In this document: positions 36,791 to 41,459 of the stretch, in pieces | Layout: every line of letters starts with the position of its first letter | Numbering within the stretch: the first letter of the stretch is position 1 | Source: Escherichia phage CMSTMSU | Reading direction: 5' to 3' (one strand) | Length of the DNA: 64,000 bases | Sequence record: MH494197.1 | Position numbers and translations under genes: made by a program | The notes under the pieces: model-generated | What the model was told of the DNA's origin: nothing | The model's database searches: none | Seen by the model: the letters and a program-made list of their open reading frames with translations, nothing else

Positions 36791-36930
36791 ATTCCCTTTT
36801 AATAGATGTATTATAGAAATATTTATGAATCTATAACGAATAAAAAGACCCATCTATAACATTTGTCCAATTTGTCCCATTTTTGGTAATAAATACTACA
36901 GAGACATTTATTACATGGAGATTTAATAAA

Positions 36931-38028
36931 ATGGCAATGAACCCACTAGCTAAGTATACTAAAATTGAAGAACTTGGTACAAAATTGGTCACAAATGGCG
37001 TGATTCCTTATAAAGAAGGAGTTCTTGGCTCTAAAGGTATCAAATGTGGCATTTGTGCTCGTAGTGCACGCGATGAAATGACACTCAATACACCAGATAT
37101 GCTTCTAAATGGTGATGCAATTGCTCGTGTTATTGAAAACTGCGTACCTAACGTACTTGATGCAGATGAACTTTATGTAAATGACGTAGAGCAACTACTT
37201 ATCGCTATTAAAGTAGCTTCTAAAGAAGAATCATATGATATTAATGTGACATGTCCTGAATGTAACAAAGAAGGCCGTTTTGAGCGTAGCTTATCATATC
37301 TACTAGAAACAGCACAAACTTTCAGTGAAGTTCCTACTGTACAATTGGATAATGGACTAAGTTTAGAGTTTAGACCACTTACTTGGAAGGAATATTCTAA
37401 CTTCGCAGAAAGAATGTTTACAGAACAACAAAAACTAAATTCCTTGAAACTGCCGAAATGGAGCAGGAAGAAAAAGTTAAAGTGTTTGGTGAAGTATTTG
37501 AAAGTATGGCACAACTCAACTTTGATATGATCGCAGGAGTTATTGCTAAAGTAATTACTCCTGAAGGTGATGAAGTAACTGAAAACGAATTCATTGCTGA
37601 ATGGCTAGGTCAGCAGTCCAAAGGAACACTTAAAATAATTCGTGAAAAAATGGATGAAGTACTTGAAATTGGTGTTTCCCATACTATGGAAGTTGAATGC
37701 AGTGACTGTAATCATCAATGGGAAATTAATGGACTGAAATATGACCCAAGTCATTTTTCGCATAATGCTTCTCCACTCATCTCCTGAAGAAATACAAGAA
37801 GTACTGAAGGAATTTGAGTTGAATAAGTCAGATATTAAAACTGCATTAATGGAGTGTTCTGTTTATATGGAAAGTGTTGATTACGGAACACTACTTAATA
37901 TGCCACTAATTGATAGAGACTTATTAGTTAAGTCTTTTAATAAGAAAATTAAAAACAAAACGAGAAGCACTAACTCACAAGGAGCCAGCACATTGTTGCT
38001 GGTTTTTGGTTTTAAACTACAGAATTGA
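36931..38028 (+). CDS. Late protein with three CxxC motifs (frame-disrupted)
   Basis: CGIC, CPEC, CSDC; late-promoter-like TAATAAATA at 36886-36894; SD GGAG. Confidence 0.4.
37984..38013 (+). terminator. Hairpin with T-run at the 3' end of the CxxC gene
   Basis: CCAGCA-cattgt-TGCTGG then TTTTTGGTTTT. Confidence 0.4.
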
Positions 38029-38029
38029 T

Positions 38030-38220
38030 TGAATTGAATTATGAAAGGAATTAATTATTTTATAGTGAACTCATCTAACTCATTTCATTCGTTAGCTGAA
38101 GAATATTCGTTACTACGTAACTCATATTCATTTCTTATAATTAATTATAAAGAACTTTAAAAGATTTAATACTTGACGGGATTTGTTGAAGACATTTTCA
38201 TCCCCACAGGGAATGAAGAC
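38030..38220. repeat. AT-rich intergenic stretch with short direct repeats
   Basis: AACTCAT x3, ATTCGTTA x2, GAATTGA x2, palindrome ATAATTAATTAT. Confidence 0.3.
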
Positions 38221-38675
38221 AATAAAAAGAGACAATTAAGTCTCTTAATTCTTGACGCTGATGGTTTCAGCATTTATTGTATTGCGAATTTCTTAAAATT
38301 CATTAAGAACGAAAGCGGGTTGCTCTGTTTCTCTCTATCGCAGTCATGTGCAACGGTCGTCAGTCTTAATCATCCTGACACTCACCTGAAAGTCTATACA
38401 ATCAAACTTCAGGCTGTTTATTAAATCACTTAATAAACTCCCTTAGCAAATCTGGTAAGGTGCGATCCTTATACATCTATCGAGGAACTCTCTGTATGCT
38501 TATCGGAGTTCTTTATTGAGCCGTGTCGCCGTGAGGGGTTCAAACTATGCCCACATCTAACGGGTTTCTTCTGCTCATCGCACTGTTGAACTGCTCATCT
38601 GCCATCTACATTTTCGATAGGATCAGGTTCTAATTTATATGCATTTCTGCATTCAACAGGATTGTCATCACTACA
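38221..38675 (-). ncRNA. Candidate noncoding transcript (~455 nt) bounded by early promoter and terminator
   Basis: Promoter TGAGAC-17-TGCTATAAT at 38681-38709; terminator AGAGAC-aattaa-GTCTCT with U-run at 38221-38246; longest minus-strand ATG ORF 35 aa; several local hairpins. Confidence 0.3.
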
Positions 38676-38680
38676 ATTAA

Positions 38681-38709
38681 CATTATAGCACCAAATTCAA
38701 AAGTGTCTC
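38681..38709 (-). promoter_or_regulatory. Early promoter (TGAGAC, 17 nt, TGcTATAAT) facing the ORF-less unit
   Basis: Same architecture as the primase promoter. Confidence 0.5.
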
Positions 38710-38802
38710 ACTATTATGATAAAAATTTATAAAAAGTACATAATTCTTGAACATTGAAGTAACGCATAAATATTTTGATAAGAATTAGTTTAGTGGGGAT
38801 TT

Positions 38803-39263
38803 ATGAAGAAAAGATTAAAAGATAGTAAAGAAGCTGCAAACTATCGAAATGAATTACTAAAGAAGCAAAAGGAATTGATCCTATAATTAAGGAACCAATA
38901 ACTAAGCCAGTACTTGATCACTATCACTTCGAGAATCAACACTGTCGTGAAGTTCTCCAGAACGAAGTGAACGCATGGGAAGGTAAAGTACAGAACAGCT
39001 TTAATCGCTATATGAAGCACTTAACCGATAAACCCTTATACGAGGTACTACGAAATCTTGCGGATTATCTGGAGCGTAATAACAGCATTCCTGAAGATGA
39101 GCAAGTTATACATCACACTGCACTAACAATCGATACGAATAAGTTTAAAAGGCTCCCAGCCGGACAACAGAATGCAATACTGGAAGAGTTAGGTGTTATC
39201 CACGTGCAAACAATGCTGCTCGTGTTAAGCAAGCCAGAAAGCTTATCAAGGAAGGTAAATTAA
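38803..39263 (+). CDS. Hypothetical protein (~150 aa, one frame break)
   Basis: SD and ATG at 38803; ORF 38967-39263. Confidence 0.4.
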
Positions 39264-39306: not shown

Positions 39307-41447
39307 TTAGAATACATCATCAAGAGTTGTATACTCAACAGTACTGAAACCATCCTCTTTAACTACTTTTAGGATTTTCTCAGTCTTAGAAAGCAATTCT
39401 TCTCTGTGAGAAATGGCATATACATTCTTACCACGCACAGCAGCCATATCTTGGAAGATAGACCACACGCGAAGAACACCACTTGAATCAAGACCTTGGT
39501 CAATCATCTCATCAATGATAAGAATATTGATACTTTGATACAATGACTCATATGTATCACGGAAAGCACAAGATAAAGCAATGTTTACCCTTGTACGCTC
39601 ACCACGACTAAGCTGTTTATAGTCAAAGTACTGACCACTTTTCTCAATTTCTACACTCAAATCATTCAAGAACACAACATTATGTTCAGAACCACACATA
39701 TCAATGTAATATTGAAGACGTGTATTCAGATACGAAATGTTTTGTTCAATAATACGCTTACGGACATAAGAATCCTTGTTTAACAACAATTTAACCAAGA
39801 AATCTTGGTGATTTGCCATCTTATCAAGGTTATTATAGTCACTATAGTCGATTGGTACTAATGAATCGGTCGTAAGTGTATTAATTTGTCCAATAAATGT
39901 GTTAGTAGTTTTCAATTCACGATCTAATTGCTGTGATAATGAAGTTACTGTCATTTCTAACTCTTTTACTTCAGATTTATTCAATGTATCTGGTACTTCT
40001 TGAAGAACATGTGCGTTCAGTTCTTCATATGATGACATAAGTTCATTAGCATAGATGTTAATTTGCTCTTCTTCACTCTTTTAATAAGTTCTTGAAGCTT
40101 ATGCTCATGCATTTGTGCTTCAGTTAGTGTAGAATAGAATGTCACAGGCTTAGGTGGCATATCAAAAATCTCAATACTATCAATTTCCTGAAGTATTGTT
40201 TCAATTTCAGAAGTGGAACTATCAATTTTCGATTGAAGTTCATTAATAGTATTTTGAATTTTATCTTTAATAGACGAAGTATGTTCATTATGTTCTAATT
40301 CGGACATACAAAGTGGACATTTACTACTCTCCACTGTTGCTAATTTGTCCACCTCAGCACGTAACGAACTCTCATGACCATTTAAAGCCACCTTTAATGC
40401 GTTAAGTTTTGTTCTTTGAAACGTTTTTGGTTATTATTCTCTTTTAGAATACCCTCCAACTGTTTCCATATCTCCAACTCATTGTGATTTTCTAATTCAG
40501 TACTGATATCAATAGTTTTTAGCTTATCAATACTTACATTTAATGCTAATTTTGCTGTTGCTAGTTCACGGTCATATGCATCATACTTCAAAGCTAACTC
40601 TTGCACACGTCTTTCTATTTGATCACGAGCAGCATTATGAATAAGAGCTTTCTCTTTCACTTCTGCCAAATCATAGAGATCGTTGAAGTCTAAAGTTTTG
40701 TAGATATTCAATTCTTCAGTCAACTTAGATACTCTATTATTTTTATCAATCTCAAATTGGTTAGCTTGTTCTTGTAATGATTCAATACTTTTTGAATACG
40801 TTCATTACTTGCAGCCACAGTTTCAATTTTGAACTTTTCTTGTTCAGCTAAACGTTTAGAATCTTTATACATATCCTTTAATAGTTCAGCTTTCTCTGTT
40901 AATTGTGTGATGCCCAGAAGTTCCTCAATCATATCACGTTGTTTCTGTGATGATAATGCAAGAAACGGCTCTACGTTAGCATTAAGTACTACAATATGTT
41001 CAAATAGTAGTTGAGAAATCCCAAGAATCTCGTTTAGATCTTCTTGTGTATCTTTCTTCTCCCCTCTTGACTCATCTTCGACCTTATTATCTTTACCTAA
41101 TGTAATAAAGTTGAAATACGTGGACTTCTCCCACGCTCGACGAGATATTGTACACCATCTTTCTCGAACTCAACAGATACTTCACAGTTTTAGCATTAGT
41201 TTTATTAACTAAGTTTGGAATTTTGATATCGTTACCAATACTTTTCCAAACAAACCAAAACTAAACCTTGAATGATGGCACTTTTACCAACACCATTACG
41301 GCGACCGGAACTATCACCACCTTCAATAACTGCATCATTGTTTTGACCAAGAACTAACGATATATCAGCACCAGACAAATCAATTACTTGTGGTGCATTG
41401 CCAAATGAAAAGAAGTTCCTCATTGATATACGTGTAATGTTTAGCAC
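39307..41447 (-). CDS. Rad50/SbcC-like recombination ATPase, gp46-like (frame-disrupted)
   Basis: Walker A GRRNGVGKS, coiled-coil middle, ABC signature LSRGER, Walker B LIIDE. Confidence 0.75.
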
Positions 41448-41459
41448 AATAAATTTCCC

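Follow-up and report, generated by a model that had tools for sequence, protein, structure and literature searches.

A putative family of large structured RNAs repeated in jumbo phage genomes and shared with bacterial chromosomal islands

The DNA considered here, called the window, is a stretch of 64,000 nucleotides (nt) from Escherichia phage CMSTMSU (sequence record MH494197.1). Within it, a segment that very probably is a structured-RNA gene, read on the minus strand from 38710 to 38221, lies between plus-strand genes: a baseplate-hub gene and a small open reading frame (ORF) to its left and an endonuclease VII gene to its right. A sequence-only reading of the window had flagged 38221-38716 as a leftward promoter-to-terminator unit and proposed a phage-encoded structured RNA. 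The covariation of the helices, an excess of G-U pairs and the conserved orientation of promoter and terminator bear out that proposal. The same reading had placed the locus where a head module meets a tail module, which the flanking genes do not bear out as such. It recognized the RNA; it did not notice the other members of the family, the conservation beyond the terminator or the copies on bacterial islands. Indeed, the conserved unit extends over ~38041-38710, and is thus longer than the interval originally flagged. The window contains exactly one copy of it. As judged from the alignments described below, this copy is a member of a large structured-RNA family, new and present in several copies per genome, that Rak2-like jumbo phages share with chromosomal islands and that is uncatalogued in the resources searched.

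The fold is visible in the way the copies differ. From 25 aligned copies, RNAalifold derives 76 base pairs, 44 of which retain pairing in at least one sequence where both partners have changed; comparison with related phages for compensatory base changes, a check that the sequence-only reading had suggested, therefore finds the region conserved and its pairing with it. Paired cells reach 97.6%, vs. 82.0% in column shuffles and 40-45% when the partners are slid by 1-3 columns. With slid partners, the number of pairs changed on both sides falls from 44 to 8-16, that of doubly changed cells from 274 to 16-36, and the covariation score from 0.436 to 0.05-0.07. None of 500 shuffles reaches the observed values of pairing or covariation. 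In the set of 37 non-redundant copies, ~21 helices are found, most of them with several compensatory pairs. They include the terminator stem and the two local hairpins first pointed out in the window (cctgaag...ctttcagg and gtcag...ctgac), which are both real helices with 11 and 4 compensatory pairs, respectively. Over 15 helices are preserved through compensatory changes. Even GAGAG/CUUUC, a helix without variation in the other copies, reads GGGAG/CUUCC in those from islands and soil, and AGGGG/CCUCU in RaK2.

The strand can also be read from the pairs. Combinations G-U or U-G outnumber A-C or C-A by 203 to 20 in the 25 copies and by 315 to 77 in the 37-copy set. Since G-U pairs would be mismatches on the opposite strand, the folded strand is the minus strand of the window. 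Thermodynamic stability is uninformative as a strand test, with z-scores of the minimum free energy (MFE) of -2.75 for the minus strand and -2.68 for the plus strand. Conservation of 90% or more is seen at about 100 positions, many of which lie in loops and junctions. The 5' hairpin has different stem sequences in the other copies and, from the alignment inspected by eye, a GAAA loop in many. These conserved positions, together with the frequent GAAA-capped 5' hairpins, therefore suggest a compact tertiary fold that binds something. A hammerhead-like reading of the GAUGAG...GAAAC blocks was considered and ruled out by eye, the nucleotides after the second stem being variable. Table 1 gives the parts of the element. 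For block CUAAGGGAG, the pairing partner is ambiguous, because predictions differ between two alignments and the block is too invariant for covariation. With a covariance model of the 3' core domain, the window copy scores 152 bits.

Table 1. Features of the RNA element and related features of the window, with the copies found on islands (island positions are those of the L-numbered records; L numbers are labels of this study).
Feature	Position	Strand	Basis or remark
Promoter	38682..38710	-	-35-like TGAGACA 38710-38704, extended -10 TGCTATAAT 38690-38682; promoter scan and family comparison
Structured RNA body, predicted short transcript form, ~455 nt	38221..38675	-	Inferred start to terminator U tract; profile match and covariation
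5' hairpin AUGCA-GAAA-UGCAU, GNRA-type tetraloop	38639..38652	-	MFE fold
5' domain	38465..38631	-	Helix table of 37 non-redundant copies, 3-6 compensatory pairs per helix
5' domain helices	38626-38616/38606-38599, 38594-38590/38584-38580, 38577-38573/38521-38517, 38511-38507/38489-38485	-	
5' domain, nearly invariant unpaired blocks GAAAAUGUA, GAUGAG, GAAACCCGUUAG, CACGGCnAnnCGGC, AUAAAG, GAUAGA		-	Conserved alignment columns
Block CUAAGGGAG	38438..38446	-	AAGGGAG core at least 90% conserved; predicted long-range pairing
13-bp hairpin cctgaag...ctttcagg	38415-38403/38396-38384	-	11/13 pairs compensatory (RNAalifold helix 11)
Hairpin GUGUCA...UGACAC (gtcag...ctgac)	38381-38376/38362-38356	-	4 compensatory pairs
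3' core	38283..38358	-	Contains GACCGUUGC 38358-38350, closing helix UGCGA/UCGCA 38342-38338/38287-38283, UCUU/AAGA helix
3' core, nearly invariant GAUAGAGAGAAACAGAGCAACCCGCUUUCG	38339-38310	-	GAGAG/CUUUC helix around 15-nt loop
First CGUCA box (CAUCAGCGUCAAG)	38251..38263	-	CGUCA invariant in 25 copies
Intrinsic terminator AAGAGAC-UUAAUU-GUCUCUU and U tract	38221..38246	-	Scan; covarying stem
G+C-rich hairpin UUCAUUCCCCUGCGGGGGGAUGAA (as in clean genomes; 3 nt shorter in window)	38197..38217	-	Sequence conserved in all copies including RaK2 and islands
Second CGUCA box (CAAAUCCCGUCAAG)	38172..38185	-	Nearly invariant
A+T-rich, purine-rich tail domain	38041..38172	-	Tail sequences of 37 copies
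Tail helix GAAUAU/AUAUUC enclosing hairpin	38101-38129	-	
Tail hairpin CUAAC-GAAUGAAAUGA-GUUAG	38072-38098	-	
Promoter motif sites in window (n=4)	43389, 38710, 25569, 2831	-	Motif scan
Indel-broken genes in window	36883-38028, 38803-39263, 39307-41450, and throughout		Comparison with fEgEco12
Full-length island copies	L041 3697-4153 (S. fonticola), L040 5399-5897, L039 6426-7025, L079 19962-20542 (E. coli LR-29-1)		Each with its own promoter

No protein appears to be encoded by this RNA. The unit of ~455 nt had been described as free of any credible ORF, its longest being a 35-amino acid (aa) frame that runs through the terminator stem, and this description holds: apart from that frame (38166-38273), the minus strand has no ORF of at least 25 aa between 38273 and 38841. 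Moreover, the missing ORF is not an artefact of assembly, since 38247-38700 is identical to the clean sequence of phage fEgEco12, in which the minus strand also lacks an ORF of at least 25 aa over the stretch. This point had to be settled because of the quality of the window. Its counterpart in fEgEco12 (170304-234642) is 98.77% identical in an alignment over 64 kb that contains 271 gap openings and 452 mismatches, and indels split the baseplate-hub, endonuclease VII and SbcC-like genes of the window into 2-3 ORFs each, all intact in fEgEco12. Hence, the window gives the impression of an Asteriusvirus jumbo phage sequence assembled with many errors rather than of one with real pseudogenes. Neither strand has an ORF that is conserved across the 25 copies; from one copy to the next, the longest ORF varies in size, position, frame and strand, and the insertions and deletions among copies are not multiples of three. 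In every record examined, the element is either unannotated or covered by spurious small ORFs. Annotated 'hypothetical protein' genes over RNA copies include fEgEco12 g340 and g341 (L001 5942-6329), g160, g256 and g257; they are not conserved, and the small genes annotated over RNA copies are probably spurious calls. Compensatory pairs in excess of the controls are thus found together with the lack of a conserved reading frame, two marks of a conserved structured non-coding RNA.

The flagged stretch matches 71 phage records by BLAST, with 2-5 places per genome. The best matches, at 99-100%, are the Asteriusvirus Escherichia jumbo phages fEgEco12, EC.P1 and Ecwhy_1, followed by 121Q and PBECO4 at 92-97%. 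Between more distant genera, an identity of 66-78% is retained over ~400 nt, when the genome-wide nucleotide identity of those genera to fEgEco12 is only 23-29% (average nucleotide identity, PMC13070987). Few DNA segments are as conserved as this element across the clade of 350-kb phages. In fEgEco12, four co-oriented copies are found at ~59.9, 110.9, 196.0 (the locus of the window) and 307.3 kb, as confirmed by the covariance model; they are separated by gaps of ~51, 85, 111, and 106 kb on a 354-kb unit. Phages 121Q, Turkey5, A4, Munch, Yersinia fHe-Yen9-04, GAP32 and metagenomic relatives retain the copy in its place between hub gene and endonuclease VII, and RaK2 has a diverged full-length copy located elsewhere. 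In most genera with a copy at the hub/endonuclease VII position, the terminator opposite it is convergent and no gene lies downstream. The copies are ancient, ~70% identical, syntenic across genera and devoid of terminal repeats.

Copies were collected through pattern scans of IMG/VR, metagenomes and species-representative genomes, and then by a profile search. This gave 59 full-length hits, of which 45 are distinct and 37 remain after merging those more than 97% identical. The window copy matches the family profile with an E value of 2.5e-137 over 38174-38666. Some copies only, among them those of A4 (L010), L003, L018, L026, L079 and others, carry optional hairpin modules of ~30-45 nt, which have a UACAAnnnAG-type loop and occupy two constant insertion sites of the RNA. 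The window copy is devoid of these modules, which resemble the variable peripheral elements of large RNA. The copy of phage A4 also has a short tandem duplication (CUAUCGAGGAAC...) within the 5' domain (L010 ~1440-1617), and the UE-S1 record annotates a 'repeat_region' over the corresponding part (L002 2787-2944).

Upstream of the RNA, GAGACA (38709-38704) and TATAAT (38687-38682), the latter preceded by TG, are found 16 nt apart by a minus-strand scan, with 10 of 12 positions matching. The sequence-only reading had seen a well-matching early promoter there, at 38681-38709. The location stands, and the motif is conserved before the copies; the match by itself is not above chance, with 14 promoter-like sites in 4 kb vs. 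16.8 expected. The motif TG(G/A)(G/A)ACA-N13-TGnTAnAAT is found outright upstream of 23 of the first 26 copies, and of two more (L021 and L033) after their start was relocated by hand. The features of a sigma-70 extended -10 promoter are thereby found, namely a TATAAT-like -10, a TG one base upstream, a -35-like hexamer 16-17 nt away and conservation across homologues, and transcription is inferred to start near 38675. In fEgEco12, the strict motif occurs at 15 sites, all on one strand (15:0); several precede replication genes (polymerase region, primase, topoisomerase), and genes of nucleotide metabolism often follow it as well. These one-strand occurrences, several of them before replication genes, therefore argue for a genuine promoter class of fEgEco12, and their distribution suggests that this class is a distinct temporal one.

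At the other end, the clean terminator reported at 38221-38246 was recovered by a scan in which terminator-like sites are enriched (6 found vs. 1.4 +/- 1.2 expected). Its stem-loop (38246-38227; 7 pairs, 6-nt loop) is followed by a U run on the transcribed strand, as in intrinsic terminators, and the stem is kept by covariation, all five modelled pairs covarying across copies (RNAalifold helix 15). Promoter and terminator are credible because both are conserved across copies. Most copies have this covarying terminator. Nevertheless, the stem, which has 3 G-C pairs, is weak, and the hairpin is absent from paralogues c3 and c4, that is from 2 of the 4 fEgEco12 copies. Read-through of the terminator by the predicted transcript is therefore likely.

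Conservation does not stop at the terminator. In nearly all copies it continues to ~38041 (38217-38041 in the window), through a G+C-rich hairpin, a second CGUCA box and a tail. RNAalifold pairs the second CGUCA box with the 5' GAUG (helix 2), a prediction without covariation. The tail has 29% G+C vs. 36% for the genome, and a G-C skew of +0.21. An AT-rich repeat stretch had been described beside the region; the A+T-rich sequence does exist at 38041-38172, as a part of the conserved element itself. In the tails of related copies, loops of the type GAACGnAGUGA and C(GAA)G mini-hairpins are observed, with the exact GCGAAGC in several. C(GAA)G mini-hairpins are located in 38041-38172 of the window and in the tails of L005, L019 and L079. 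GCGAAGC is known to form a DNA mini-hairpin of exceptional stability, which occurs at some phage origins. The tail helices consist almost entirely of Watson-Crick pairs, which do not tell RNA from DNA; either a good share of the transcripts would pass the terminator, or the extension would work at the DNA level.

The element is also found outside phages. In Serratia fonticola GTA-SR07, a copy adjoins genes for a large serine recombinase and two ParB-like proteins, and a duplicated rof gene lies alongside; in Serratia sp. 2723, it directly follows a large serine recombinase; and in an Enterobacteriaceae metagenome-assembled genome, it lies between thiM, with its thiamine pyrophosphate (TPP) riboswitch, and a CI-like repressor. 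In E. coli, two of 5,426 complete genomes have a copy. That of strain LR-29-1 lies on an island of ~10.5 kb between ffs and ybaA, with an integrase split by IS3, candidate defence genes and a resolvase. The candidate defence system, PDC-M45 (DuOB and DUF488), stands beside an mSLOG-DUF4326 gene (L079 22999-24730), and a DUF4326 protein is also encoded by phage (fEgEco12 g240). Downstream of the RNA, this island has iteron-like repeats (TAACGATCGG / TATCGATCGTT, three times, L079 20960-21025) in a 700-nt stretch devoid of ORFs. Recombinases and host flanks are present in all four islands, of which only the E. coli one is visible in full; no recognizable replication gene was found in the latter. 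The plasmid collection holds no copy of the element.

The promoter, every conserved block and the compensatory changes are retained in the island copies. Hence, the fold is under selection outside the phages too. The four islands are unrelated and no protein common to them was found, only a DUF4326 domain being common to islands and phage; therefore, the RNA element is their common denominator. In Pseudomonas, small islands with an integrase and defence genes were shown experimentally to be transduced by a jumbo phage (PMC12595487), which makes a satellite reading plausible. By analogy, the RNA-bearing islands are candidate satellites or defence islands of jumbo phages.

No known RNA family accounts for the element. 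The Rfam and covariance-model search that had been suggested for the region matched no catalogued family: Rfam 15 at its gathering threshold gives no match in the whole window (GOLLD, ROOL, OLE, HEARO, group I/II introns, RNase P, transfer-messenger RNA (tmRNA) and 6S RNA included), and only chance-level matches at E values up to 10 over 37950-38850. On seven other family members or islands, Rfam finds nothing except the host TPP riboswitch and signal recognition particle (SRP) RNA. No tRNA or tmRNA is detected by ARAGORN. In the literature searched, no paper describes this RNA, although a 2023 catalogue of 10,006 candidate viral structured RNAs (PMC10690425) may include parts of it. Four ORF-free transcribed regions of 236-619 nt, ncRNA001-004, have been defined by RNA sequencing in PA5oct, a phage related to 121Q, RaK2 and GAP32 (PMC7318152). 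Homology to them was rejected. Indeed, the profile hidden Markov model has no match at E <=0.01, and with filters off the covariance model gives PA5oct at most 12.5 bits vs. 123-152 bits for true copies.

From general knowledge, the closest parallels are GOLLD, ROOL and OLE. Like this RNA, they are several hundred nt long, with many covarying helices, conserved unpaired nucleotides and carriage by phages or mobile elements, and they too had no known biochemical function when first discovered. In contrast, the present RNA has no Rfam match, exists as 4-5 diverged paralogues per genome, each with a conserved promoter, has a conserved extension past the terminator, and occurs on integrative chromosomal islands as well. 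By general category, the phi29 pRNA is also comparable, being a phage-encoded structured RNA made from an early promoter and acting as RNA. However, that RNA has 174 nt, is single-copy and plays a known role in the packaging motor.

On balance, we favour a large structured non-coding RNA gene, acting as a free RNA through its fold, as the best explanation of the whole, with moderate confidence. Host RNA polymerase would start near 38675 from the extended -10 promoter. A part of the transcripts would stop at the weak terminator, giving ~455 nt, and the remainder would pass the G+C hairpin and the tail, giving ~520-650 nt. The RNA would work through its fold rather than through a product, and the partner that it binds would be something present in any infected Enterobacterales cell. 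The favoured form would be a free, trans-acting RNA or a ribonucleoprotein, but we regard the chances of action in trans, as opposed to that of an origin element in cis, as evenly balanced. Several points tell against this interpretation. Promoter, start site and 3' ends are predictions. Most copies were collected via one conserved motif, so that the invariance of that block is partly an effect of the collection. The pairs were counted on the very alignment that had yielded the consensus structure, although the margin over the controls is very large. Compared with E. coli 16S, 23S and 5S rRNA, three tRNAs and SRP RNA, the conserved blocks show only an 8-nt match, at chance level. A simple promoter-to-terminator RNA gene does not explain the conservation past the terminator. 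Finally, four diverged paralogues at fixed dispersed positions and otherwise-unrelated island carriers fit a role in cis at least equally well.

Such a role in cis could be that of a transcript-primed replication origin, the main rival explanation, which deserves attention even though we consider it rather unlikely. The folded RNA of each copy would form or control an RNA-DNA hybrid near the hairpin with its G-run and C-run and the A+T-rich tail, and prime a T4-like replisome; islands would carry a copy so that the infecting jumbo phage replicates them. The 4-5 dispersed copies per genome, in one orientation and at conserved positions, are in favour of this scheme, as is their spacing in fEgEco12: for four random points, a smallest gap of at least 51 kb has p ~0.08 by our own arithmetic, albeit a weak statistic. 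The promoter class is shared with replication genes. Past the terminator, the conserved G+C hairpin and the purine-rich tail, with its C(GAA)G mini-hairpins including GCGAAGC, would also suit an origin, though Watson-Crick tail hairpins do not separate DNA from RNA. The promoter directs toward the A+T-rich tail, but the terminator and ~450 nt of folded RNA intervene. Comparable systems are ColE1 RNA II and T4 oriF/oriG which, as generally known, have a promoter-driven transcript of a few hundred nt and a G-run plus A+T-rich region downstream; T4 has several origins per genome, and its replisome, like the T4-like one here, is encoded by the phage. Plasmids bearing a T4 origin replicate after T4 infection without an origin-specific initiator. 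The element is the sole thing common to the four unrelated islands and the phages, and the E. coli island lacks a recognizable replication gene. Satellite islands of jumbo phages, for their part, have been shown in Pseudomonas (PMC12595487). However, the fold is far more elaborate and conserved than those of RNA II or the T4 origins, and an intrinsic terminator lies inside the unit; about 100 conserved positions and more than 15 covarying helices represent an information content well beyond what known primer or R-loop transcripts require. Nor was an equivalent of the antisense RNA I of ColE1 found. Indeed, no antisense regulator is conserved, the sole plus-strand promoter-like site inside the element being TTGACG-17-TATTGT (38252-38280), the -10 of which, in alignments inspected by eye, is missing from paralogue c3 and from the Erwinia copy. 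The fuller proposal that the element is the cis-acting core of a new type of phage origin, in which a structured primer RNA of ~0.5 kb, a hairpin and a tail mark 4-5 origins of Rak2-like jumbo phages, and small islands with defence genes in Serratia and E. coli have captured a copy for their replication and mobilization by an infecting jumbo phage, appears to us more doubtful still.

The remaining explanations have less to offer. If the fold and the terminator formed a very large attenuator or antitermination element for a downstream gene, one would understand why most copies away from the locus of the window have a co-oriented gene within 100-200 nt, with the terminator between fold and gene, and why a TTGACA-hairpin-GGCAAAU motif stands just before the gene in many copies. 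We nevertheless find a cis-regulatory leader improbable. The genes downstream are unrelated between copies, and two paralogues are without the terminator hairpin. Furthermore, the locus orthologues of Asteriusvirus, Munch-like phages, GAP32 and phage BF are fully conserved, even though the terminator opposite them is convergent and no gene lies downstream. Since the locus copy is conserved without a downstream gene, a leader function is unlikely and a stand-alone RNA is favoured. A DNA-level repeat without RNA function, whether recombination hotspot, protein-binding array or decayed mobile element, would agree with the multiple copies and with the equal folding of both strands, but it is very unlikely given the excess of G-U over A-C, which is the signature of RNA on one strand, and given the age, divergence and synteny of copies that lack terminal repeats. 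The chance that a small protein is the functional product can be called negligible. The sequence-only reading had offered the 83-aa plus-strand ORF 38173-38424 as its alternative; this ORF is present in the window, and fEgEco12 has g340 and g341 annotated there. It runs, however, through the terminator stem, and it is gone from 121Q, which is 96.7% identical and where the longest plus-strand ORF, of 38 aa, lies elsewhere; in addition, as described above, the 25 copies keep no common frame.

It is rare to find large structured non-coding RNAs with many conserved nucleotides, and such RNAs have time and again opened the way to new biochemistry. The present family is supported by unusually clear covariation, and it occurs in phages that are being developed for therapy. 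Through its presence on unrelated islands, jumbo phages become linked in a concrete and testable manner to candidate satellites or defence islands, which is timely since satellites of jumbo phages have only just been demonstrated. The element is, in addition, a candidate replication origin for these phages, for which no description of an origin was found in the literature searched. If the origin reading were true, the element would be the first sequence-level 'handle' for how satellites exploit jumbo phages.

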